From Heptranchias perlo (taxonomy: Eukaryota), in contig NC_090326.1 of NCBI RefSeq assembly GCF_035084215.1, positions 155,558,001-155,622,000 on the forward strand: a DNA stretch of 64,000 bases. The letters run 5' to 3'. The notes below the pieces were generated by a model that searched no databases, was not told the origin of the DNA, and saw only the letters and a list, made by a program, of their open reading frames with translations. This document shows positions 5,231 to 64,000 of this stretch, one piece after another. Every line of letters starts with the position of its first letter. The first letter of the stretch is position 1. A program made the position numbers and the translations under genes.

Positions 5231-5717
5231 GTCTGTCTGTCTGTCTGTCTTTCACTTTCCCACCAAACCAAGTAAACAGGCAGGCAATTTAACATCTCAA
5301 GCAAAGGTAATCCACCACAGTATCATTCTAGGTCCCATGCTCTAAAGTATCATTTTAGATCACAGTGCACCTGAACCCACAAACCACCACTGACTTAGAG
5401 GCAAGAGTGCTCCCAATTGAGCCTAGCTGATACTATACATTGTAATGAACAGAGTAGTGTGGATACCGTACTGCAGCCAGAGGAAATATTAATACGTTTC
5501 CAGTGAAAGCTAGTTAGCTATTTTCTGCTGTTACAGAATATTTTAGCTACACCTCATTTCTTATAATCCAGATTAACCACAAAACAATCTCTTGAGTGCA
5601 ATTATTTGTATCACCCTTATGTTTGTATATGTGGCCACATATCTGCACCTCAGACATTATAAAGCCTAATATAGTTAGCTTAAGAAGCAAACTAGCAAAG
5701 GAGCAATGAGAGCTGTT

Positions 5718-6290
5718 AGAAGTCTAGATGATTAAATTATCTTAGATTAGATTCAAAATCTGGACGGTGAAATCACCTTAGATTAGACTCGAAGTCTGGA
5801 CGGAGAAATCACCTTAGATTAGACTCGAAGTCTGGACGGAGAAATCACCTTAGATTAGACTCGAACTCTGAACGGTGAAATCACCTTAGATTAGACTCGA
5901 AATCTGGATGGAGAAATCACCTTAGATTAGACTCGAAGTCTGGATGGAGAAATCACCTTAGATTAGACTCGAACTCTGAACGGTGAAATCACCTTAGATT
6001 AGACTCGAAATCTGGATGGAGAAATCACCTTAGATTAGACTCGAACTCTGAACGGTGAAATCACCTTAGATTAGACTCGAAATCTGGACGGTGAAATAAT
6101 CTTAGATTAGACTGGCAATCTGGACGGTGTAATCACCTTAGATTAGACTCGAAATCTGGATGGAGAAATCACCTTAGATTAGACTCGAACTCTGGACAGA
6201 GAAATCACCTTAGATTAGACTCGAAGTCTAGATGGTGAAATCACCTTGGATTAGACTCGAAGTCTAGACGGTGAAATCACCTTGGATTAG
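5718..6290. repeat. 36-bp minisatellite, about 15-16 copies (ttagattagactcgaaatctggacggagaaatcacc)
   Basis: tcaccttaga recurs at 5881 and 6061 (5 x 36). Confidence 0.95.
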
Positions 6291-6477
6291 GTTTATTGTT
6301 GCCAGCACTAGCAACATCAGTAATGATTTCACATTATTGTTTTAACGCACATGACTCAGTGACAGAAGGGGGAGAGACAGCTGAATGATCTGTCAGTCTC
6401 CCTTCTACCCCGATGAAATGTGTGCAACATTGAAAGATGTCGGAAGTTTTCAAACTCTGTATATATGGGTCTGCTTA

Positions 6478-7317: not shown

Positions 7318-7850
7318 TAAAACCAGAAAATGCTGGAAACCCTCAGCAGATCAGGCAGGCTTGGGGTGGGGATCCTCTATCGACACACACTGGCAGGGTG
7401 GTCTGCACCCCTGGGGTCTATCTGCCTTTCTTCCACCACATTCCTGGGCCATGGAAGCTTTTTCCGCTTTGCCAGATTTTCTGTGCTTCCCTCCCCCTCT
7501 ACTGTTCTGCTGTAATAATTTACACCTCCTCTGGACCCATCGTTTGTTTCTATACTCGTCTCATTATTACCTCCTTTTGCCTTGCACCATCATTGCTTCT
7601 GTCATTTAGTGACTCCTGCCCTCCATTCGATCACAGACCTCTCCTTTTTGTTCTTTTCTTACCCACCCCCCCCAATCTTTCCCCGGCTCTGCACTTGTGT
7701 AAAAGCTGTTCATCACTTTCATCTTCCAATTCTGATGAAAGGTCTTCGACCTGAAACGTTAACTCTGTTTCTCTCTCCACAGATGCTGCCTGGGCTGCTG
7801 AGTGTTTCCTGCTATTTCAGATTTCCAGAATCCGCAGTAGTTTGCTTTTG
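7318..7850 (+). mobile_element. Penelope-like element relic, family B, with a short inverted 5' arm
   Basis: 7318-7360 is the imperfect rc of 7783-7820; hammerhead-like motif at 7728-7764 within the terminal region. Confidence 0.65.
7728..7764 (+). ncRNA. Minimal hammerhead ribozyme motif (family B)
   Basis: CUGAUGA-A-AGGUC-uuc-GACCU-GAAA-CG-UU; palindromic AACGUU; stem I has one mismatch. Confidence 0.7.
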
Positions 7851-10230: not shown

Positions 10231-11042
10231 CAAAAACCAGGGAATAAAGAGACAGCCTGACCATCACTTTCTCCGTTATAAGCCATTTACACCATTTACT
10301 TCAATACAAAGAGGTTCTATCTCTCCACTGATACAAACTATGTCCTATTATTTCAGTGTTAAGTCACCATATATTTTTTTAAAATCTTGTTCTGGGAATG
10401 TGAACAATACCCAGTAAAGCAGCATCTATTGCCCATCCCTGGATGCCCTGAGGGCTTTAAGAGTCAACCATATTGTGTGGAACTGAAGTCACATGCAGAC
10501 CAGAGGCAACCACATATCAGACTGTAAAGAACCAGATTTATTGAAGTCATTTTCACATCTTACTGTGGTGAGATTTGAACCCTTGTCCTCTGAGGTTGAT
10601 CTAAGCCAGTATCGTAACCACCAGACTACTGTACCCGAATCCAACATAGCATATGGGTTGTGAGACTGGCCCCATCGAGTACTTTCTCACAGCTTAGGCT
10701 GAAATCATTTCTAATGTTGAAAGAAATTCTCACGTCAGGAATATTCGGGTGTCAGTGGCCAGCTCTGCAAAAGCAGGAATGTGACGTGGGGCTAATTATA
10801 AACTTGCATCTCATAACGATGCCCATAGGAATCACTTACAAAAGAGTCATGTTCAACTTTAAAGAAAGGACTTGTATTTATATAAGGCCTTTTACGACGT
10901 CCCAAAGAACTGTTGTAATGCAGGAAATGCAGCAGACAAGGTTCCCACAAACAGCAATGAGATAATGACCAGATAACCTGTTTAAGCGAATGTTGTAAAC
11001 AATTTTACAACACCAAGTTATAGTCCAGCAATTTTATTTTAA

Positions 11043-11083
11043 ATTCACAAGCTTTCGGAGATTTTCTCCTTCCTCAGGCAAAT
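11043..11083 (-). ncRNA. Minimal hammerhead ribozyme motif (family A, inverted arm)
   Basis: rc = AUUUGC-CUGAGGA-A-GGAGA-aaa-UCUCC-GAAA-GC-UU-GUGAAU. Confidence 0.8.
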
Positions 11084-11803
11084 GTTTCAAGAACTCCTTG
11101 AAGCCTACGCATTTATACATATAGAACAATACATGGTGTTTACAGACTGCCCCTGCAACTGCCCGTTGCCAAGGCAATCACCGTGTTCAGACAGAGAGGT
11201 GTCACCTGCAGAACCCCCGAATACACATTCAACAAAAAAACAAACAGGGAAAAAAAACAGAGAAAAAAAAAACAGAGAGAGAGGCAGAAACATCCGGAAG
11301 GCAGAGAGAGCCAGCAAATGACCCATTATATTAAAAACAGATAACATTTGTTCGCTGGTGGGGTAACGTGTAGCGTGACATGAACCCAAGATCCCGGTTG
11401 AGGCCGTCCTCATGGGTGCGGAACTTGGCTATCAATTTCTGCTCGACGATTTTGATAGCCAAGTTCCGCACCCATGAGGACGGCCTCAACCGGGATCTTG
11501 GGTTCATGTCATGCTACACGTTACCCCACCAGCGAACAAATGTTATCTGTTTTTAATATAATGGGTCATTTGCTGGCTCTCTCTGCCTTCCGGATGTTTC
11601 TGCCTCTCTCTGTGTTTTTTTTTTCTCTGTTTTTTTTCCCTGTTTGTTTTTTTGTTGAATGTGTATTCGGGGGTTCTGCAGGTGACACCTCTCTGTCTGA
11701 ACACGGTGATTGCCTTGGCAACGGGCAGTTGCAGGGGCAGTCTGTAAACACCATGTATTGTTCTATATGTATAAATGCGTAGGCTTCAAGGAGTTCTTGA
11801 AAC

Positions 11804-11844
11804 ATTTGCCTGAGGAAGGAGAAAATCTCCGAAAGCTTGTGAAT
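11804..11844 (+). ncRNA. Minimal hammerhead ribozyme motif (family A, tail-bearing arm)
   Basis: AUUUGC-CUGAGGA-A-GGAGA-aaa-UCUCC-GAAA-GC-UU-GUGAAU; stem I AUUUGC/GUGAAU; predicted cleavage after 11838; AATAAA follows at 11849. Confidence 0.8.
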
Positions 11845-12484
11845 TTAAAATAAAATTGCTGGACTATAACTTGGTGTTGTAAAATTGTTTACAATTGTCA
11901 ACCCCAGTCCATCACCGGCATCTCCACATCATGACTACTAAGCGAATGTTGGTTGAGGGATAAATATTGGCCACAACACCAGGAAGAACTCCCCTGCTTT
12001 TCTTTGAAATAGTGCCATGGGTTCTTTAACATCCACCTGAGAGGGCAGATTGGGCCTTGGTTGAATGTCTCATTTGAAATATGCCACCACCAACAGTGCA
12101 GCTCTCCCTCAGTACTGTACTGCAATGTCAGTCTAGATTATGTGCTTAAGTCTCTGGAGTGGGTTTTGAACCTGCAACCTTCCAAATAACAGAGACAAAA
12201 GTGCTACCACTGAGCCAAGGCTGACCTAAAATACCCTTTGATTTTACTTGTTGATCTATTTTCTGCTGTCTTTTGGTGTTGTGTATGAATTTTCCTTTAA
12301 ACAGTGAATGTTAACGGCCTTGTGAGATGAACTGGTTTGGTGGAGTTATTCCGTGTGACTGTGAGGGGGCTGAATTGATATCAATAGAAATAGTCATGAA
12401 TTCAGGATGGTTTGGCCATTGGATCATTCAACTGTGTATGTTAACTGGCCACATCTCAGTGGCCAGTGTTCTTAATGGTTACGT

Positions 12485-14487: not shown

Positions 14488-14815
14488 TAGAATCATAGAA
14501 TCATAGAAGTTTACAACATGGAAACAGGCCCTTCGGCCCAACATGTCCATGTCGCCCAGTTTATACCACGAAGCTAGTCCCAATTGCCTGCACTTGGCCC
14601 ATATCCCTCTATACCCATCTTACCCATGTAACTGTCCAAATGCTTTTTAAAAGACAAAATTGTACCCGCCTCTACTACTGCCTCTGGCAGCTCGTTCCAG
14701 ACACTCACCACCCTTTGAGTGAAAAAATTGCCCCTCTGGACCCTTTTGTATCTCTCCCCTCTCACCTTAAATCTATGCCCCCTCGTTATAGACTCCCCTA
14801 CCTTTGGGAAAAGAT
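14488..14815 (-). mobile_element. CR1 3' fragment, young family
   Basis: Near-identical to 56800-57125. Confidence 0.9.
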
Positions 14816-15089
14816 TCTTTCTTGTTCTCGTGCCTCTTGGGATCAGGGATGTGATGGTTGGACCCTGGCTCCTTCCCTGCCCAAGCGTTGTCCAGCAGAG
14901 CTGCCAATTTGACTGCTACCACCCCCCTGAATGTGGGCCCCTCGAAACTAGCTCCTGCCAAGCCCAGAAGGATGAGATATTCCGGTCCCTAAGGTGTGAA
15001 TGTTTGCTGGAGAATGTTTTACAATGAACCTCCATTGTCTGAGGCCATCTGGACAGATGCTTTGTCTGACTTCAGATCCATGTCTCTAG

Positions 15090-21040: not shown

Positions 21041-21255
21041 AAAGTACCAGTTGAAGAGGTAAAGAGGTGCGATGAGACAAATGGCCTCCTTCTGTGTTAT
21101 ATTTATGATTCTCTGCTCTAGGTAGAGGTGGCATGGTGTCTACAGAAACCATATTAGTCCTTACTGTCCCCTCTCCCCCCCCCCCAAGACCAGGCTTCAT
21201 ACCTAGCTGGCTTGTGTCAATGAGAAGGTGTATCCCACATTTGTATCTCAAACCA

Positions 21256-21632
21256 GGCGGTTTAGGGGTGATCTTATAGAAGTCTATAAAATAATGAGGG
21301 GCATAGATAAGGTAGATAGTCAAAATCTTTTCCCAAAGGTAGGGGAGTCTATAACGAGGGGGCATAGATTTAAGGTGAGAGGGGAGAGATACAAAAGGGT
21401 CCAGAGGGGCAATTTTTTCACTCAAAGGGTGGTGAGTGTCTGGAACGAGCTGCCAGAGGCAGTAGTAGAGGCGGGTACAATTTTGTCTTTTAAAAAGCAT
21501 TTGGACAGTTACATGGGTAAGATGGGGTATAGAGGGATATGGGCCAAGTGCAGGCAATTGGGACTAGCTTAGTGGTATAAACTGGGCGACATGGACGTGT
21601 TGGGCCGAAGGGCCTGTTTCCATGTTGTAAAC
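21256..21632 (+). mobile_element. CR1 3' fragment, young family
   Basis: GDLIEVYKIMRGIDKVDSQNLFPKVGE identical to the 56884..57984 ORF. Confidence 0.9.
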
Positions 21633-31605: not shown

Positions 31606-32540
31606 GAGGTAAGTACTGGTGAGCCTGACCATGACGTTAGTGAGCCAGATCCTGCCATCGGTAAGTCGGCTCCTGTTGTCAGTGAGTCAGATCCTGCTGT
31701 CGGTGAGTCAGCTCCTATTGTCGGTGAGCCAGATTCTGCCGCCGGTGTGTCGGCTCCTTTGGTCAGTGAGCTGAACCCTGCCCTCGGTAAGTCGGCTCCT
31801 GTTGTCGGTGAGCCAGATCCTGCCCTCGGTAAGTCGGCTCCTGTTGTCGGTGGGTCAGATCCTGCTGTCGGTGAGTCAGCTCCTATTGTCGGTGAGCCAG
31901 CCCCTGCCGCCGGTGAACCGCCGCTGCTGCCGGTGAAACTGCCCCTGCCATTGGTGAGACTGCCGCTGCCGCCGGTAAACCTGCCCCTGCCGCCGGTGAG
32001 CCTGCCCCAGCCTCCAGTGAGACTGCCCCTGTCGCCGGTGAACCTGCCCCAGCTGCCGGTGAGACTGCCCCTTCCGCTGGTGAGACTGCCCCTGCCGCCG
32101 GTGAGACTGCCCTGCTGCCGGTGAGACGGCCCCTGCCTCTGGTGAGACTGCCCCTGCCACCGGTGAGCCAGCCCCTGCGGCTGGTGAGACTGCCCTTTCT
32201 GCCGGTGAGACTGCCCCTTCTGCCGGTGAGACTGCCCCAGCCACCGGTGAGACTGCCCCTGCTACCGGTGAGACTGCCCCTTCTGCCGGTGAGACTGCCC
32301 CTTCTGCCGGTGAGACTGCCCCTGCCGCCGGTGAGACTGCCCCTGCCTCCGGTGAGATTGCCCCTTCTGCCGGTGAGACTGCCCCTTCTGCCGGTGAGAC
32401 TGCCCCAGCCACCGGTGAGACTGCCCCTGCTACCGGTGAGACTGCCCCTTCTGCCGGTGAGACTGCCCCTTCTGCCGGTGAGACTGCCCCAGCCGCCGGT
32501 GAGACTGCCCCTTCTGCCGGTGAACCTGCCCCTGCCTCTT
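31606..32540 (+). repeat. GC-rich 21-bp (7-codon) repeat tract, with diverged 42-bp dimers at the 5' end
   Basis: gccggtgagactgccccttct units reading AGETAPS / PAVGESA. Confidence 0.9.
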
Positions 32541-33346
32541 CTTCTGCTAAATTTGGCTCAGCTATTCCAGTGGCTGATTCATCAACCCAATTCCTTTTGG
32601 GACGTCAAACTTGTGACTTTCTGGACTGTATGGATCAGCACTATCACCAGCACCACATTTTCAATAGGTTTTATCTTCTCCCTCTTGTTCAGCTGCGCTC
32701 ACTGTTCACTGACTGACTTCAATTGAAAGGAAAATCAGGCGGGATGTACAACGGGCATCTGATCCAATGCCAGGTTTGTGCCACCCCGGAGAAGTTGACG
32801 TTCACCCTCTCGGTCGAATGTGTTCGAAATACTGACCACAAGGGGAAATCTTTGTGAATATAATTTACCCACAAGCGACCAGAGTGATTCTCATGTCCTG
32901 GGAGTCAGCGATATGTAAAAGCTTCATTTGACCCATGGGGCTAGACTGAGCTGACTGAAAGTGCTCCATTTATATATTCTTCTCCGCCCCGATCCAGTTC
33001 ACGAGCCCAGGCTGCATTACATTACCTGCTTGGCATGTTTAGTGTTCCTCCCTCCCGCCCCTGCTGTGCACACCAAATGACAGGAGATTACAGCATGCGT
33101 TAGATTGTTTACATCAGCCTGCTCCTAATCCCCTTGGTTTGCAGCTGACTTTAAAGTCTCTCTACTATTATCACTTAAATCGAAAGATTCCTATTGACAA
33201 ACACTGCTACGTGCAGGGTCCCTGCTCTTTAGAAAGCACCCTGTTTACCAGTGATCCCCATTCAAGGAATTTCCTTTGTACTTTGTATTTATTATCCTTA
33301 TATTATTTAGAAACCTAAATGAATGGTCAATGCCCATAGTTTGGAC

Positions 33347-35855: not shown

Positions 35856-36209
35856 TATTTGGAGCCGAATTCAAGGCAGTGCTTTTCCACCCAGATTATT
35901 GGGTATCTTGAGAGAAGGTTGAAGCTTTGCCAATTTTCATCCTGTTATTAAGAGAAAACAAAAAAACTCGCCTTAATTTCTGTAACTAGAAGAGAGCGAC
36001 TTAAAGGGATAAAATCAAACGTCGGACTCTAAGGTTCACCTGAGAGCTAGCGAGCTGCTACCCTCTTTTGTTAATCAGAGGGGAATTTTGTTTTCTGAGC
36101 TGGAGCCGACCCCCGGGTGAACCTAGCAACCCAGGTCAATAAACCTGAGCAGGAAATCGCTTTCAACCCTTGGAAGTGGGGAACCCTGGGGAGATTTGAT
36201 GCCAGTTAA

Positions 36210-36908
36210 TGTGTCAGTGTGGGACTGGATTTCTGAACACTGAGTCAGTGTGGGACTGGATTTCTGTTGGTCACTGAGTCGGTGTGGGACTGGATTTCTG
36301 ATCACTGAGTCAGTGTGGGACTGGATTTCTGTTGGTCACTGAGTCGGTGTGGGACTGGATTTCTGATCACTGAGTCGGTGTGGGACTGGATTTCTGATCA
36401 CTGTGTCGGTGTGGGACTGGATTTCTGATCACTGTGTCAGTGTGGGACTGGATTTCTGTTGGTCACTGAGTCGGTGTGGGACTGGATTTCTGATCACTGT
36501 GTCAGTGTGGGACTGGATTTCTGATCACTGAGTCAGTGTGGGACTGGATTTCTGATCACTGAGTCGGTGTGGGACTGGATTTCTGATCACTGTGTCAGTG
36601 TGGGACTGGATTTCTGATCACTGAGTCGGTGTGGGACTGGATTTCTGATCACTGTGTCAGTGTGGGACTGGATTTCTGATCACTGGGTCGGTGTGGGACT
36701 GGATTTCTGATCACTGTGTCAGTGTGGGACTGGATTTCTGATCACTGAGTCAGTGTGGGACTGGATTTCTGATCATTGAGTCGGTGTGGGACTGGATTTC
36801 TGATCACTGAGTCGGTGTGGGACTGGATTTCTGATCACTGAGTCAGTGTGGGACTGGATTTCTGATCACTGAGTCGGTGTGGGACTGGATTTCTGTTGAT
36901 CACTGAGC
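36210..36908. repeat. 31-bp minisatellite, about 22 copies (cactgagtcggtgtgggactggatttctgat), with some 34-bp variants
   Basis: tgggactgg at 36601 and 36632. Confidence 0.95.
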
Positions 36909-37084
36909 CGTGTTGCCTCCGTCAGTGGAAGCGGCTAGAACTCGTTCAAGGGATTGATCACCGGACTCAATCGTTTGGTTTAATTCGCACTGGCATCGAA
37001 ACAAAATGTATTTATCTGAATTGAACAGGAGAATTTGCACTTATGCCATCCCTTATCAGATTTCAGAAACATCTCAAAATGGTT

Positions 37085-37992: not shown

Positions 37993-38442
37993 TACATTTG
38001 TCAGCATTAAATTTTGTCTGCCATTGTTTTACTCATATCTTGTTCATTTCATTCTGATATTTTTGGGCTGCCTCCTCCGATTCTACAGACCCGCCTAGAT
38101 TGGTACCAACTGCAGATTTGACCAATTTGCATTGCCTTCCTGAATCCAAGTCGATTTGTCTGTTTTCAATGGTGCTGGTCGAGGGAGGCGAACTCGCGGA
38201 TATTCTTCAAATACTGCCCTGGGATCTTTAACGTGCCCCTGAACAGGCAGACTGGGCCTCCGTTTAAAGTCTCGGAAAACGCTGGCAGTCCTGCTGAGGG
38301 ATCACACTCAGGAATATTGTTAGCATTCACCATTCTCAGGTCAAGCGACGACTAGGTTGCGGAGTTCACTCACTGTACTTTTCCCCAACAAGCTAATCTT
38401 GGAAGATTGCCTATTTAATGCACTGATGTGAACCTCCATATC

Positions 38443-39812
38443 TCTGTTTCTGAACAGCGTATCCCCTCTGTCCTGAGATACTGGTGGGGTCTGTTCCTGA
38501 GCAGCGTATCCCCTCGATCCTGAGATACCGGTCGGGTCTGTTTCTGAGCAGCGTATCCCCTCGATCCTGAGATACCGGTCGGGTCTGTTCCTGAGCAGTG
38601 TATCCCCTCGATCCTGAGATACCGGTCGGGTCTGTTCCTGAGCAGCGTATCCCCTCGATCCTGAGATACCGGTCGGGTCTGTTTCTGAGCAGCGTATCCC
38701 CTCTGTCCTGAGATACCGGTCGGGTCTGTTTCTGAGCAGCGTATCCCCTCGATCCTGAGATACCGGTCGGGTCTGTTCCTGAGCAGCGTATCCCCTCTGT
38801 CCTGAGATACTGGTGGGGTCTGTTCCTGAGCAGCGTATCCCCTCTGTCCTGAGATACCGGTCGGGTCTGTTCCTGAACAGCGTATCCCCTCTGTCCTGAG
38901 ATACCGGTCAGGTCTGTTCCTGAACAGCGTATCCCCTCGATCCTGAGATACCGGTTGGGTCTGGTCCTGAGCAGTGTATCCTCTCGATCCTGAGATACCG
39001 GTCGGGTCTGTTTCTGAGCAGTGTATCCCCTCGATCCTGAGATATCGGTTAGGTCTGTTTCTGTGCAGCGTATCCCCTCTGTCCTGAGATACCGGTCGGG
39101 TCTGTTTTTGAGCAGTGTATCCCCTCGATCCTGAGATATCGGTTGGGTCTGTTCCTGAGCAGTGTATCCCCTCGATCCTGAGATATCGGTTGGGTCTGTT
39201 CCTGAGCAGTGTATCCCCTCGATCCTGAGATACCGGTCAGGTCTGTTTCTGAGCAGCGTATCCCCTCTGCCCTGAGATGCTGGTCAGATCTGTTTCTGAG
39301 CAGCGTATCCCCTCGATCCTGAGATACCGGTCGGGTCTGTTCCTGAGCAGCGTATCCCCTCCGTCCTGAGATACCGGTCGGGCCTATTCCTGAGCAGCGT
39401 ATCCCCTCGATCCTGAGATACCGGTTGGGTCTGTTTCTGAGCAGTGTATCCCCTCGATCCTGAGATACCGGTCGGGTCTGTTCCTGAGCAGCGTATCCCC
39501 TCGATCCTGAGATACCGGTCGGGTCTGTTCCTGAGCAGCGTATCCCCTCGATCCTGAGATACCGGTCGGGTCTGTTCCTGAGCAGCGTATCCCCTCGATC
39601 CTGAGATACCGGTCGGGTCTGTTCCTGAGCAGTGTATCCCCTCGATCCTGAGATACTGGTGGGGTCTGTTTCTGTGCAGCGTATCCCCTCGATCCTGAGA
39701 TACCGGTCGGGTCTGTTCCTGAGCAGCGTATCCCCTCGATCCTGAGATACCGGTCGGGTCTGTTTCTGAGCAGCGTATCCCCTCGATCCTGAGATACCGG
39801 TTGGGTCTGTTC
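38443..39812. repeat. 47-bp CpG-rich minisatellite, about 29 copies (gagcagcgtatcccctcgatcctgagataccggtcgggtctgttcct)
   Basis: agcagcgtat at 38641 and 38688. Confidence 0.95.
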
Positions 39813-41547
39813 CCTAGCATGTCGCCAGTTGTCTTTCTCATAAGATTAGCATTTCACTAGCAGGGCCCAACAGTTAAATAGCCAAGGCAAAGAAATGTGA
39901 TATAAAGATGTCAATGTGTCTGTTGTTAATATCACACAGCCCGATTTCAGGACCAGTGTCCGTTCCTTTAAATATTGCTTATGCAAAATGTACAATAACT
40001 TCACCGATACAGACACCAATGTAAAATTCCCCAAAACACAAACTTAGTGATGGTATTGGTGAAATAAAACCTCAGAAAAGGAACAAAATATTCACAAAAA
40101 TGTTAGCAATTTACTAATTGCCCCGGACATGTTTCAGCAACTTCGTTGGAAAAAAACTAGTTTGCAAATAAGCCAAGGGAGCAATGACAATGATCTCTCT
40201 CTTCATTTTAAACCATAAAATAAATTAACAATTTATTGCAGCCATCGGCAGTTCAACGAAAGCCAGCTGCAATTGCACTTCATATTGGCGTTTATTGTCA
40301 CTTATTTTTCTTGATATCTCTGCTTCCTTCTCCTCCTGGAGCTAATCATCTGGTTTTACACAAGGGAAGTGCTTCATTTCACCAGATCAAATGAGAGCAG
40401 TGCTGTCGGCCTCTGCGGAATAGGCGGGAGCTCCACTCTACAGATAGGGCCAAATGGATAAAAAATAGCTCAAGAGGCCTCTCATCGGTACAGTGCTCCA
40501 AAAACTTCACTGCGTTCCACCCCTTATATCGACTTTCATTCCACACCCCGTGCCTCAGGAACCATTTGGACCCCACTTGAGTTCTCATACTCTCAATCTG
40601 CTCTCGGCCCAAATCACAGTAGCCTCGTGTTTATGGAATTCCTAAAGAGCGGGAGAGACAGATCCTGGTGTCCCATAACTGTTGGATTGATGTTGAAACT
40701 GGGACATGACAGGACGTGAGCCAAAAAACAGAGCCTTAACTTGTTTTCAATGCAGCAAAGAGGTCTGAGAGGGGACATGATCCATGTTCTCAGGATGGTG
40801 AGGGAAATGGATAATGTAGTTGGAAGTAGGCCAATAAAACTCTTATCTGAACAACCCATAATATGGTTAGGACCTCTATTAAAATCCATCACCATGGCAA
40901 TAGGAGATGTCAGATGGGTCGGGGGAGGGGGAAAGGAAACCAATCTATGTGAGTTCATTAGTTTCTTAGCATCCAGTGTGGAAATGAAGGGTTTCTGCTT
41001 TGTCTGCATTTCTAGTTCGTGTCCCGACGGGAGGTCATGGGATGAAACCTCCAGGAATACACCCAACCAGAGTTGGCAACCCTGGAAGAGAGGGGTGGGA
41101 GGGCTACGTGACCCCAGCAAGAGGGAGAGAGGTGCTGTGGCAGAAGGCCGGAGGCTGGTGCAGACTGTAGGTGTTCTTTCAGATTGGGGGTGGGGTGGGA
41201 GTTGCGTCTTCATCCGGGCAGGCAAACTACCTGGGCCGTGAAACACTCCACACTCCTTCGATGCTCTCACCCGGGCAGTTCACCTGTCCTGGGCAAGATA
41301 CTGAGAGTGTTGGTTGTTTTATGTTTCTATTTGTGACACACACACACCCTCGCCCTGTCCTCACTCCTCACTGGGGCAGTAGCAGCAGCAGCAACAAGCA
41401 ACTGCAGTAACAGCTTTACCTTCCTGCTCCCCCCACTCCCCCCCCCTCCAATTTGTTCAATGATTTCCAAAGATTCATTGACTACGGTGTACCAAGCCCA
41501 TGAAGGCCAAGTCCCAGCAGTTTCCTGCTGCTGCAGCCTTCACATTG

Positions 41548-54860: not shown

Positions 54861-56883
54861 GTGTGCCTGCAGGGAAGAATCGATGGGCAGATCCCGCTCA
54901 CTGGCATCCAAACTCTAGTAAAATTGTAACCCTAGAACACACCCGATGGGACAGCCAGTTCTTGAAAAATAGATTTAAAAATGAGTCTTTCCATTAGATG
55001 ACCTGGTAACTTGTGAGACTCCCTCCTGGAAGAGGTCTCATTTCTCCAGTCTAGATTTGCTTTGGGCAATTTTACATCTGAGTCACATCATGGCATTTAT
55101 GTTAATATGAAACTGAAATGAATCTATATTGATTCAAGCTGTGTGGTATAACTGGCCTTCGAAATCTTCCACGGGGCCATTATTTACATTAGGGCCTTCC
55201 AAATATCTTACTAGCCTAAAATTTACATCAGCCTTCACAGGACTAATATTTAAGGCTGCATATACTGACACCACAACTCCTGGCCAGAATGGAAATGATT
55301 GGGTAATTCCCTCATCAAATACTTCTGGAGACTGCACTGGAAGTGACTGGAATTGATTTTATGCTCATAATTTGTAACTATCCTCCACTCACTGCATTTT
55401 GCTGGTGAAATAATCCTGCTTTTATTGGGAGACTTTGCTGTAGTTTCGGTCATGAGTTCTATTTGCTGTAGTTCATAGAGACTCTTCTTAAATAGACTGT
55501 TAGTTGAGTAAAATAGATTTTGTTCCCTGTAAAATAGACTGTTTGCTGTGAGTCCTGCCTTAAGACCTGCCCCGCCTCCAACTTTTCCAAATCTAGGGCG
55601 TTTGAATTCTTTTGTAGGGCCGATATTTAATCCAGGGCCTTTGAAATCTCTTGGAGGGCCAATATATAAACCAGAACCCTCGAAATCGTTCGGCAGGGCC
55701 AATATTTGTATCAAGTCCTTCAAAATCTCTCCAATATTTAAACCAGAACCTTTGAACTCTCTCACACTGTAACAGGAAGCTAACAGGCCACTCCAGGAAC
55801 ACCAAAATAATTACCCCCATCAAAAAATAAATCTGGCTCAAATCCATTTTCCCTTAGTTAATGTGAAAATGAAAGGCTCACTGAGTTAAATTGAAAACAT
55901 TCAAAAATAGTTCTTGTGCTGGTCAGAGCACCAGCCTGCCAATCATAAGATTATTGAAATCTATGAGAAGGGTAATATAGAACAATATAGAACTAGCACA
56001 GCCCAGAACTTCTGGTGTGCCACAGAATACTTGTGACCTCTTTAACCTCCTGAGAGAAACAAGCACTGGTAAAATTTCCGAGAGTAAATCATAGAATCAT
56101 AGAATGATATAGCAAAGAAGGAGGCCATTCAGCCCATCGTACCTGTGCCAGGAATTTGAAGTAAGGTATGAAATTTCTTCCTGCTTCCCAAGGGCAATAG
56201 AACAAAAATGTCCCTTTTATGTTGCTGCAGTCCTTCTGAGAGAGTAGTGTCATATTGGTCACTGGTCCCCAGCTCCTGCATCTTACTCCCCCATTTACTT
56301 CCTCACCTGGCACCATTCTCTGGCCAGAAGTGGAGCTGCTGAATTTAGAGGCCGTTAATAAGATCCAGGATGGGGTGGGGGAGGGGCCTCCTGCCACTAA
56401 AACAAGACATGTCGATCTGTTCATATTTCCAAGTGCAACTGAGAGCAGGAAAGCCCATGCTTTGGTCCATAAGCTGTAATCCAGTAAAGCCCAAAAAAGC
56501 TGTCAACTCAATCCAGCGCCTTGAAGGGACTGCCTTCAGTCTGGGTGGGAGGGGTTGTAATACCATTGATATTGTCCAATAACTTAGATGGGAATGAAGG
56601 ATGGACCTGAAACCAGCAAATATTGGCAAAAAGAACGCCACAAGATGTGGATTAAGAGGGTTAGACGAAACCTGAACCACACCCAAATCTGATGGGTAGC
56701 ACGCAAACTGGTGGAACACACAGCCTTCAGTTACAGGCCTAGGCAGGATCTTGGAAGAGGGACACGAACGGCTGTCGCCAAAAAAGGCAATAGAATCATA
56801 GAATCATAGAATCATAGAAGTTACAACATGGAAACAGGCCCTTCGGCCCAACATGTCCATGTCACCCAGTTTATACCACTAAG

Positions 56884-57984
56884 CTAGTCCCAATTTCCTG
56901 CACTTGGCCCATATCCCTCTATACCCATCTTACCCATGTAACTGTCCAAATGCTTTTTAAAAGACAAAATTGTACCCGCCTCTACTACTGCCTCTGGCAG
57001 CTCGTTCCAGACACTCACCACCCTTTGAGTGAAAAAATTACCCCTCTGGACCCTTTTGTATCTCTCCCCTCTCACCTTAAATCTATGCCCCCTCGTTATA
57101 GACTCCCCTACCTTTGGGAAAAGATTTTGACTATCTACCTTATCTATGCCCCTCATTATTTTATAGACTTCTATAAGATCACCCATTAACCTCCTACTCT
57201 CCAGGGAAAAAAGTCCCAGTCTGTCTAACCTCTCCCTATAAGTCAAACCATCAAGTCCCGGTAGCATCCTAGTAAATCTTTTCTGCACTCTTTCTAGTTT
57301 AATAATATCCTTTCTATAATAGGGTGACCAGAACTGTACACAGTACTCCAAGTGTGGCCTCACCAATGCCCTGTACAACTTCAACAAGACATCCCAACTC
57401 CTGCATTCAATGTTCTGACCAATGAAACCAAGCATGCCGAATGCCTTCTTCACCACCCTATCCACCTGTGACTCCACTTTCAAGGAGCTATGAACCTGTA
57501 CTCCTAGATCTCTTTGTTCTATAACTCTCCCCAACGCCCTACCATTAACGGAGTAGGTCCTGGCCCGATTCGATCTACCAAAATGCATCACCTCACATTT
57601 ATCGAAATTAAACTCCATCTGCCATTCATCGGCCCACTGGCCCAATTTATCAAGATCCCGTTGCAATCCTAGATGACCTTCTTCACTGTCCACAATGCCA
57701 CCAATCTTGGTGTCATCTGCAAACTTACTAACCATGCCTCCTAAATTCTCATCCAAATCATTAATATAAATAACAAATAACAGCGGACCCAGCACCGATC
57801 CCTGAGGCACACCGCTGGACACAGGCATCCAGTTTGAAAAACAACCCTCGACAACCACCCTCTGTCTTCTGTCGTCAAGCCAATTTTGTATCCAATTGGC
57901 TACCTCACCTTGGATCCCATGAGATTTAACCTTATGTAACAACCTACCATGCGGTACCTTGTCAAAGGCTTTGCTGAAGTCCAT
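56884..57984 (-). pseudogene. CR1 ORF2, RT C-terminal part
   Basis: MDFSKAFDKVPH, VPQGSVLGP, SKFADDTK; open to the stop codon. Confidence 0.95.
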
Positions 57985-57987
57985 GTA

Positions 57988-58196
57988 AACAATTTTACAA
58001 CACCAAGTTATAGTCCAGCAATTTTATTTTAAATTCACAAGCTTTCGGAGGCTTCCTCCTTCGTCAGGTAAATGTTGACGAAGGAGGAAGCCTCCGAAAG
58101 CTTGTGAATTTAAAATAAAATTGCTGGACTATAACTTGGTGTTGTAAAATTGTTTACAATTGTCAACCCCAGTCCATCACCGGCATCTCCACATCA
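57988..58196 (+). mobile_element. Fold-back PLE terminal insertion, family A, in CR1 ORF2
   Basis: Perfect 83-bp arms 57984-58066 and 58076-58158, 38-nt tail, TSD tgaagtccatgta at 57975-57987 and 58197-58209. Confidence 0.92.
58033..58073 (-). ncRNA. Minimal hammerhead ribozyme motif (family A variant)
   Basis: rc = AUUUAC-CUGACGA-A-GGAGG-aag-CCUCC-GAAA-GC-UU-GUGAAU. Confidence 0.8.
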
Positions 58197-60054
58197 TGAA
58201 GTCCATGTAGACCACGTCTACTGCACAGCCCTCATCTATCTTCTTGGTTACCCCTTCAAAAAACTCAATCAAATTCGTGAGACATGATTTTCCTCTCACA
58301 AAACCATGCTGACTGTTCCTAATTAGTCCCTGCCTCTCCAAATGCCTGTAGATCCTGTCCCTCAGAATACCGTCTAACAACTTACCCACTACAGATGTCA
58401 GGCTCACCGGTCTGTAGTTCCCAGGCTTTTCCCTGCCGCCCTTCTTAAACAAAGGCACAACATTTGCTACCCTCCAATCTTCAGGCACCTCACCTGTAGC
58501 GGTGGATGATTCAAATATCTCTGCTAGGGGACCCGCAATTTCCTCCCTAACCTCCCATAACGTCCTGGGATACATTTCATCAGGTCCCGGAGATTTATCT
58601 ACCTTGATGCGCGTTAAGACTTCCAGCACCTCCCTCTCTGTAATATGTACACTCCTCAAGACATCACTATTTATTTCCCCAAGTTCCCTAACATCCATGC
58701 CTTTCTCAACCGTAAATACCGATGTGAAATATTCATTCAGGATCTCACCCATCTCTTGTGGTTCCGCACATAGATGACCTTGTTGATCCTTAAGAGGCCC
58801 TACTCTCTCCCTAGTTACTCTTTTGCCCTTTATGTATTTGTAGAAGCTCTTTGGATTCTCCTTTGCCTTATCTGCCAAAGCAATCTCATGTCCCCTTTTT
58901 GCCCTCCTGATTTCTCTCTTAACTCTACTCCGGCAATCTCTATACTCTTCAAGGGATCCACTTGATCCCAGCTGCCTATGCATGTCATATGCCTCCTTCT
59001 TCTTTTTGACTAGGGCCTCAATCTCCCGAGTCATCCAAGGTTCCCTACTTCTACCAGCCTTGCCCTTCACTTTATAAGGAATGTGCTTACCCTGAACCCT
59101 GGTTAACACACTTTTGAAAGCCTCCCACTTACCAGACGTCCCTTTGCCTGCCAACAGACTCTCCCAATCAACTTCTGAAAGTTCCAGTCTAATACCATCA
59201 AAATTGGCCTTTCCCCAATTTAGAATTTTAACTTTTGGGCCAGACCTATCCTTCTCCATAGCTATCTTAAAACTAATGGAATTATGATCACTGGTCCCAA
59301 AGTGATCCCTCACTAACACTTCTGTCACCTGCCCTTCCTTATTTCCCAAGAGGAGGTCAAGTTTTGCCCCCTCTCTAGTCGGGCCATCCACATACTGAAT
59401 GAGAAATTCCTCCTGAATACACTCAACAAATTTCTCTCCATCCAAGCCCCTATTGCTATGGCTGTCCCAGTCAATGTTGGGAAAGTTAAAGTCCCCTACT
59501 ATTACCACCCTATTTTTCTTGCAGCTGTCTGTAATCTCCTTACATATTTGCTCCTCAATTTCCCGTTGACTATTTGGGGGTCTGTAGTACAATCCTATCA
59601 AAGTGATCTCTCCCTTCTTATTTTTCAGTTCTACCCATATAGACTCAGTGGGCGAACCCTCGGATATATCCCCTCTCACTACTGCCGTGATGTTCTCCCT
59701 AATCAAGAACGCAACTCCCCCTCCTCTCTTACCTCCTGCTCTATCTTTCCTATAGCATCTGTACCCTGGAACATTGAGCTGCCAGTCCTGCCCCTCCCTT
59801 AGCCATGTTTCAGTAATAGCTATAACATCCCAGTCCCATGTACCCATCCATGCCCTGAGTTCATCTGCCTTGCCCATCAGACTTCTTGCATTGAAATAAA
59901 TGCAGTTTAATCTAGACTTCCCTTGGTCTTTGCCCTGCTTTCTCAGACCATCTGTCCGGTCATGTTTTGTACACTCTCCCTTACTGCCTTTTGTTTCTGT
60001 CACCACTTTACTTCCCACTGACTTCCTGCATCGGTTCCCATCCCCCTGCCACAT
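58197..60054 (-). pseudogene. CR1 ORF2, APE endonuclease and RT N-terminal part
   Basis: CIYFNARSL, AITETW, GDFNFP, SDHN, PGNYRPVSLTS, QHGF; continuous frame up to the PLE insertion. Confidence 0.95.
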
Positions 60055-62885: not shown

Positions 62886-63156
62886 AATGAGAAAAAAAAG
62901 GAAAGAAAAACTACTTACCACTCCCTTTAAGGAGTTTACTCCTTTAAATTGTTCTTAATTTAGAGAATGTTAACTACACTAGGGACCTTCCTAAATAAAC
63001 GCTACTTCCTACAAGACCTGCAGACCTTCCCTTTCTTTTTACTTTCGTTACTGTAGATAAGTAGAAATACTCACCTGAACCTACTCACCAATCAGGTGCC
63101 TCCCCTGTGTCGCGTCCCGATCTGATTCCTGACGTCACTTCGAACTCGGTCGCAGC

Positions 63157-63862
63157 TCCGCTCGGCTCGGCTCCTCTCAGCGCTCTGAAATCCCACCTTT
63201 TATCGGACGCTCCCTCCGCTCGGCTCCTCTCAGCGCTCTGAAATCCCGCCTTTTATCGGACGCTCCCTCCGCTCCGCTCGGCTCCTCTCAGCTGTTCTCA
63301 GCGCTCTGAAATCCCGCCTTTTATCGGACGCTCCCTCCGCTCCGCTCGGCTCCTCTCAGCTGTTCTCAGCGCTCTGAAATCCCGCCTTTTATCGGACGCT
63401 CCCTCCGCTCGGCTCGGCTCCTCTCAGCGCTCTGAAATCCCGCCTTTTATCGGACGCTCCCTCCGCTCGGCTCCTCTCAGCTGTTCTCAGCGCTCTGAAA
63501 TCCCGCCTTTTATCGGACGCTCCCTCCGCTCCGCTCGGCTCCTCTCAGCTGTTCTCAGCGCTCTGAAATCCCGCCTTTTATCGGACGCTCCCTCCGCTCG
63601 GCTCGGCTCCTCTCAGCGCTCTGAAATCCCGCCTTTTATCGGACGCTCCCTCCGCTCGGCTCCTCTCAGCTGTTCTCAGCGCTCTGAAATCCCGCCTTTT
63701 ATCGGACGCTCCCTCCGCTCGGCTCGGCTCCTCTCAGCTGTTCTCAGCGCTCTGAAATCCCGCCTTTTATCGGGCGCTCCCTCCGCTCGGCTCCTCTCAG
63801 CTGTTCTCAGCGCTCTGAAATCCCGCCTTTTATCGGACGCTCCCTCCGCTCGGCTCGGCCCC
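63157..63862 (-). promoter_or_regulatory. Tandem GC/CpG-rich monomers (about 53-68 bp, about 11 copies) forming the CR1 5'UTR; candidate internal promoter
   Basis: gctctgaaatcccgccttttatcggacgctccctccgctc units; on the minus strand each has gataaaaggcggga; TGACGTCA at 63130-63137. Confidence 0.7.
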
Positions 63863-64000
63863 TCTGTCTCCTCTGCTGGATAACTCCTAACTCCTAACTC
63901 CTCTCAGGCTGATGTGAAAATGCTGCTGGCCCAAATCAGAGAAAGGCGCAATGCAATAGTTGGAACCATCACCTGGAGCAGCAAGGGCCATTTGGAAGGA

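Follow-up and report, generated by a model that had tools for sequence, protein, structure and literature searches.

The 41-nt motif at positions 11804-11844 of the 64,000-nucleotide stretch of Heptranchias perlo DNA analysed here (the window) is a minimal type I hammerhead (min-HHR) in the terminal repeat (pLTR) of a Penelope-like element (PLE). It is likely to be a weak, conditional self-cleaver, active only once two copies have paired through the palindrome AAGCUU and probably helped by the element's protein. Its carrier is a young, very abundant EN+ PLE, which occurs as tandem units and as tens of thousands of 5′-truncated stubs. The family is well suited to studying what PLE ribozymes do during transposition, being young, with intact 902-aa ORFs, tandems and about 80,000 motif copies with countable ends. 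These ends suggest that the usual template is uncut RNA starting just before the ribozyme, which matches the single in vitro study of a PLE.

Hammerhead motifs and their insertions in the window

A structure-aware scan of both strands of the window, for the core, stems I and II and a minimal stem III, returned exactly three 41-nt motifs, at 11804-11844(+), 11043-11083(-) and 58033-58073(-), and gave 0 matches in 100 order-3 Markov simulations of the window. A preliminary description of this DNA had placed the motifs at these coordinates and strands, with the predicted cut after 11838, and both placements hold. Its list of three agrees with the scan but omits an arm truncated in the core, at 58076-58103(+), and a hammerhead of a second family, at 7726-7766(+). 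The five differences that it reported between 11804(+) and 58033(-) (at N7, a stem II pair, the loop and a stem I pair) were also recovered. The first two motifs are letter-for-letter identical arms of one fold-back insertion, so the window provides two independent motif sequences; the five differences exist, but only these two sequences stand behind the proposed covariation between copies.

The hammerheads and their parts are as follows.

11804-11844 (+): minimal type I hammerhead, with the predicted cut after 11838
11804-11809/11839-11844 (+): strands of its stem I
11810 and 11817 (+): its core C3 and its extra A
11818-11830 (+): its stem II
11831-11834 and 11833-11838 (+): its GAAA and its palindrome AAGCUU
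11043-11083 (-): minimal hammerhead with the same letters as 11804-11844
58033-58073 (-): minimal hammerhead of a sister subfamily, in a short-end arm
58076-58103 (+): tailed partner arm, its hammerhead truncated at U4 and lacking C3 and the 5′ strand of stem I
7726-7766 (+): minimal hammerhead of a second, older PLE-linked family, with the palindrome AACGTT

The motif has the min-HHR core, C3-U4-G5-A6-N7-G8-A9, G12-A13-A14-A15.1 and U16.1-H17. It departs from a canonical type I hammerhead in its zero-length loop III and lack of a monomeric helix III, and an Rfam scan of the window matched no hammerhead family at E ≤ 1. Weak miRNA matches at 11396-11493 in that scan were rejected as a reflection of the palindrome centre.

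The first insertion is a 902-bp fold-back whose arms, 10993-11435 and 11452-11894, differ at two mismatching pairs and lie within one target-site duplication (TSD) around both. Its features and the other main-family insertions are listed below.

10983-10995 (+): left copy of the 13-bp TSD
10993-11453 (-): inverted, 5′-truncated PLE arm, with the final 40 ORF codons and the pLTR, a short 3′ end and no tail
11452-11556 (+): right-arm remnant of the PLE ORF, with its C-terminal 34 codons, stop and the end of the GIY-YIG region (tblastn, 97% to the full-length ORF)
11770-11779 (+): TATA-like box, a putative promoter, 30-41 nt before C3 in the subfamily references
11800 (+): transcription start predicted from the DNA (TATA+30), the modal 5′ end of the subfamily's genomic copies
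11849-11854 (+): AATAAA hexamer 10 nt past the predicted cut, a possible polyadenylation signal
11895-11938 (+): PLE tail between two modal 3′ ends, containing the ORF start codon at 11931
11939-11951 (+): right copy of the 13-bp TSD
57975-58209: second insertion, a short head-to-head pLTR pair with a 13-bp TSD (57975-57987 and 58197-58209)
1144-1300: third insertion, inverted pLTR stubs bounded by an 11-bp TSD, which break off inside the hammerhead and have no core

The second insertion lies in what we take, by eye, to be LINE-type RT coding sequence. The third also has a short internal duplication.

The carrier is an abundant Penelope-like element

Searching the animal's own genome recovered near-identical copies of the carrier, a 3,081-bp unit with a 902-aa RT/GIY-YIG ORF. 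In three of nine longer loci the motif lies on either side of an open frame of 918 codons, in which the 902 residues begin at the first ATG, and it sits in pLTRs flanking the PLE ORF at L031, L034, L039 and L141. The last of these (G000:C1:4459500-4468500) is a triple tandem that holds two intact 902-aa ORFs, its motifs spaced by 3,081 bp. The preliminary assignment to a minimal type I hammerhead in a PLE terminal repeat is thereby borne out, the motif lying at both ends of full-length RT/GIY-YIG copies and fitting the published min-HHR consensus. The hallmarks of EN+ PLEs are likewise present: tandem and partial-tandem units, an inverted pLTR, a one-sided tail and a TSD.

The ORF carries an RT domain (RVT_1, E 8e-10) with a DKG motif and YIDD. 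Its GIY-YIG region scores 20.9 bits (E 4e-4), just below the Pfam cutoff of 22.6, and its atlas neighbours include PF01541 in 18-34% of members. A CX4CxxC linker, CHGNLCKTC, lies at residue 753. CX2-5CxxC linkers between RT and EN have been assigned to Neptune and Nematis (PMC8557442), and the linker here is of the Neptune/Nematis type as judged by motif match. Genome-wide, the exact motif pattern gave 81,783 matches against 0 for a control, about tenfold the published 4,000 in coelacanth and 9,000 in Xenopus (PMC4209133), and a pattern for the downstream flank gave 108,328.

Core and stems within the main family

We sampled the first 100 flank-anchored copies on contig C1, which were not selected for the core; 65 of them, from 44 insertion events, extend past stem I. 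The core is intact in 55 of the 65. Counting a variant as lineage-level when it was common to at least three insertion events, we found variation at 1 of 11 core positions (G12, in a CpG), at 5 of the 6 that are free to vary, at all 6 of those upstream and at 7 of the 28 downstream. Across subfamilies the core stays constant, whereas drift is seen at N7, in loop II and in the upstream flank. The downstream flank is conserved too, so the constraint on the core could partly reflect promoter, leader or protein-binding roles. Within this region AATAAA (11849-11854) is kept in 64-65 of 65 copies per position.

The extra nucleotide between A9 and 10.1 is A in 65/65 copies, and pair 10.1-11.1 is G-C in 60 and G-U in 5. 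Pair 15.2-16.2 is GC in all 65, columns 15.2-17 having helped to anchor the extraction of copies. All copies are paired at 10.3-11.3 (58 A-U, 4 G-U, 3 G-C), and 64 of the 65 keep stem I pair 4; stem I pair 5 is broken in 24 of the 65, and the outer stem I pairs and the top stem II pair are often broken. That top pair, 10.5-11.5, had been called compensatory. It is the weakest pair and reads A·C in 15/65 copies (10/44 insertion events), and so acts more like a loop-closing position. In 34 distinct main-family rows 89.8% of cells are paired, with only 3 double-change pairs, a number matched by 336 of 500 shuffles; covariation within the family is weak.

A second family keeps the palindrome by a double change

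The hammerhead at 7726-7766(+), in which one stem I pair is broken, belongs to a family with the same 29-nt geometry, unrelated flanks and the palindrome AACGTT (3,428 + 106 genome matches). PLE ORF remnants of 27-47% identity lie near several of its loci. Across the two families, 17 distinct rows give 97.9% of cells paired, with 9 of 11 pairs changed on both sides; these rows were hand-picked by a core-containing pattern, and the score is essentially a comparison of two lineages. Between the families the stem III pair 15.2-16.2 switches from GC to CG (AAGCUU to AACGUU), the double-sided change expected of a dimeric stem III. The palindrome's retention in a second PLE family fits dimer formation.

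A single hammerhead of a third type lies at L194:1501-1530(-) (G000:C4:141554550-141554579). Its stem II differs from the others and its stem I is 7 bp long; the 3 kb of this locus gave no PLE ORF match.

Copies often begin at a putative RNA start and end at two sites

The 3′ ends of copies fall into two clusters about 37 nt apart. In 30 of 31 head-to-head pairs a tailed arm is joined to a short one, the exception continuing into a tandem, and the same holds in 13/14 further same-subfamily loci, one of which repeats an earlier pair. A TSD of 8-15 bp, mostly 12-13 bp, surrounds 29 of the 31 pairs.

Among 100 sampled 5′ ends, 36 lie within the 21 nt up to C3 and 19 in the preceding 120 nt; the motif's own 28 nt hold 5, the 17 nt past the cut hold 10, and 30 reach beyond 140 nt. 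One end scored at -52 is a misalignment. A binomial test of the excess before C3 gives p ~1e-17, a value computed with 18 upstream ends (correctly 19) and optimistic because paired arms are not independent. The mode lies at TATA+29/30, with 11 of 40 ends exactly there, and in two subfamilies the ends shift with the TATA box, to -10 in 4 of 6 copies of one spacing and to -16/-17 in 7 of 12 of the other. We infer that the 5′-end peak marks run-off at the RNA start.

Does the motif cut?

If the RNA were cut efficiently in vivo and a sizeable share of copies reverse-transcribed from the 3′ product, copies should start at GUGAAU. Four genome-wide patterns, each allowing three mismatches, counted 61, 43, 70 and 71 copies starting at offsets -8, -2, 0 and +1 from the cut, the offset-0 pattern being blind to perfect fold-backs there. 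Offsets 0 and +1 thus reach 1.2-1.7 times the values at -8 and -2. By eye, 29 of 30 offset-0 loci inspected among those listed are true truncations or inversion junctions, and in the local sample of 100 ends 3 fall at offset +2, a local count only; the local ends just past the cut, in their 17 nt, outnumber those in the 28 nt inside the motif. This excess is small beside the pile-up before C3. Among 50 listed short inverted junctions near the cut (243 loci in all), inspection by eye found no perfect cut-site palindrome (0/50), 14 junctions centred on AAGCTT and 6 with one arm starting at G1.1, and the junction contexts are AT-rich and open to microhomology. In the subfamilies counted, any excess of copies starting at the predicted cut is at most weak, with no clear spike, and we consider efficient cutting quite improbable.

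In L238-L247 and the 50 loci listed, the commonest inverted junction (19 of the 50 by eye) connects one arm, at the putative RNA start, with the other through a 3-nt A/T microhomology, the outcome expected of cDNA fold-back or of annealing between two cDNA ends.

Folding of the leader gives pair probabilities of 0.24-0.30 for stem I and 0.72-0.95 for stem II. Stem III cannot form in the monomer, and cofolding of two motif RNAs did not yield a catalytic dimer. N17 of the motif is U, a poor residue for cleavage. Published min-HHRs show no cleavage as monomers and weak cleavage as dimers (PMC4209133).

A rival reading is that the motif has ceased to cleave. It might instead be kept as a folded leader or a protein-binding element at the start of the retrotransposon RNA, as would suit a cut site that leaves little footprint among copies dominated by intact hammerheads. 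Hammerhead mutants of the Anolis element PAc left in vitro insertion unaffected, and none of the reads in that work had an end at the cut (PMC11167929); non-cleavage functions of min-HHRs cannot, according to Cervera and De la Peña, be ruled out (PMC4209133). On the other side, two families whose flanks are unrelated retain exactly the letters of the catalytic core as well as a palindromic stem III, and the Anolis motif does cleave, though only with the element's protein, with C3G/G8C rescue (PMC11167929). We therefore regard loss of cleavage as unlikely and a weak, protein-helped ribozyme as the probable reading.

Back-to-back arms usually come from one template or source locus

The palindrome raises a further question: whether AAGCUU serves, as in retroviral dimer initiation, to join two element RNAs, each templating one arm of a pair. 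Genome-wide patterns counted 1,047 same-subfamily back-to-back pairs, from one same-subfamily class, and 5 mixed pairs, so that more than 99% are of one subfamily. This ratio argues against random two-RNA dimers, which we mostly reject as the source of back-to-back arms, although subfamilies may not have been active together and the comparison is not airtight to that extent. Many paired arms also have variants in common that other sampled events lack, and the predicted duplex is weak (-4.3 kcal/mol). The mixed pairs themselves speak for two RNAs, since three of the four evaluable have a 12-13 bp TSD and 4/4 combine one short with one tailed arm; in the local sample, 1 of 25 pairs passed a strict chimera test. 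Joining of two RNAs as the general route is very improbable, and both arms usually derive from one template or source locus, through either cDNA fold-back or twin priming on a single RNA. For such palindromes, Arkhipova et al. (2013, PMC3846280) proposed that an antisense template primes itself. Now and then, one insertion event can draw on two templates.

Single TSD-bounded insertions with arms of different subfamilies were seen at L140 (G000:C1:4023069/4023208), L232, L235 and L236.

A possible course of replication

For a weak ribozyme working in cis, the copies suggest the following course. The TATA box would set transcription to start about 10 nt before C3, so that the hammerhead would stand at the beginning of the mRNA, some 90 nt before the AUG, and recur at the mRNA's 3′ end just before AATAAA. 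With a hammerhead at both ends, the likeliest partner of each is the second pLTR of the same transcript; the two may pair in cis through the palindrome and cut rarely. Reverse transcription would begin at two sites within the leader, separated by about 37 nt, and run through the uncut or re-ligated hammerhead to the RNA start, giving stubs and back-to-back pairs, with most insertions presumably templated by uncut RNA. Cutting at both pLTRs would release a putative unit-length RNA of 3,081 nt able to circularise, as release and circularisation of a unit RNA have been proposed (PMC4209133).

A fuller account would take the stubs as a record of the whole replication cycle, with the hammerhead as its switch; we offer it tentatively and rate it as rather doubtful. 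Here the pLTR would follow the plan of a retroviral U3-R-U5, with TATA, then the start, the hammerhead, AATAAA and the RT-start tail. One protein dimer would prime both nicked target strands at the two sites of a single uncut RNA, which would yield back-to-back arms of which one and only one is tailed. On the rare occasions when an RNA was cut twice and ligated, a 3,081-nt circle might arise and template full-length tandems, and the hammerhead may thus switch between a stub-making mRNA and a circular master template. The circle model, if true, would account for the tandem copies of more than unit length that PLEs typically show.

Relation to known hammerheads and retroelements

The motif resembles the min-HHRs described for PLEs (PMC4209133) in its type I layout, CUGANGA with an extra nucleotide, G10.1-C11.1 and short stem I, and in a palindromic 15.2-16.2 without a loop III and its presence in both pLTRs. 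As there, copies number thousands of dispersed singles together with opposite-strand pairs. The motif agrees in every sequence feature with the consensus in Fig. S3 of that paper, where the Chrysemys (turtle) min-HHR has GAAA-G-C-U-U identical to this motif; of the 56 motifs in the figure, none is from a cartilaginous fish. Stem II here is 4-5 bp with a 3-5 nt loop, against 7-8 bp in Schistosoma (PMC4209133). The motif class and its pLTR location have been known since 2014, and what is added here, the copy number and the end statistics, is modest. Our literature searches found no publication on shark PLE hammerheads; published supplements may list shark motifs.

The closest experimental counterpart is Poseidon PAc of Anolis carolinensis (Frangieh et al. 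2024, PMC11167929), which shares tandems, a pLTR hammerhead and two discrete 3′ ends that define the tail, reverse transcription starting internally at the two corresponding sites. In PAc the ORF starts within stem II and reverse transcription starts 111-118 nt into the ORF (PMC11167929). Unlike in PAc, the AUG here follows the predicted cut by about 90 nt and is where the tail ends; and PAc is a Poseidon, whereas the ORF here has the Cys linker of Neptune and Nematis (PMC8557442).

EN+ PLE anatomy as described (PMC3846280; Craig et al. 2021, PMC8557442) shares with this element an inverted, 5′-truncated pLTR and a one-sided tail of 30-40 bp, as well as a TSD and a TATA and Inr in the pLTR. 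Quantified here beyond the published anatomy are the one-tail rule (30/31), the TSD of mostly 12-13 bp, the >99% of pairs within a subfamily and the way 5′ ends follow TATA+30. Animal non-LTR retrozymes (bioRxiv 10.64898/2026.07.22.740005) have type I hammerheads related to those of PLE pLTRs, and were reported in the one chondrichthyan sampled there. They are short non-coding tandem repeats; the copies here are TSD-flanked fragments of a coding PLE. Identity with non-LTR retrozymes was rejected, as the window copies are TSD-bounded PLE fragments and the tandems observed consist of coding units of 3,081 bp.

Other repeats in the window

Long minisatellite arrays occupy 38302-39917 (47 bp), 31608-32550 (21 bp), 5611-6398 (36 bp), 36205-36986 (31 bp) and 63156-63901 (about 53-68 bp). 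Another young dispersed repeat, 97-100% identical and in mixed orientation, occurs at 14614-14816, 21255-21632 and 56821-57195.
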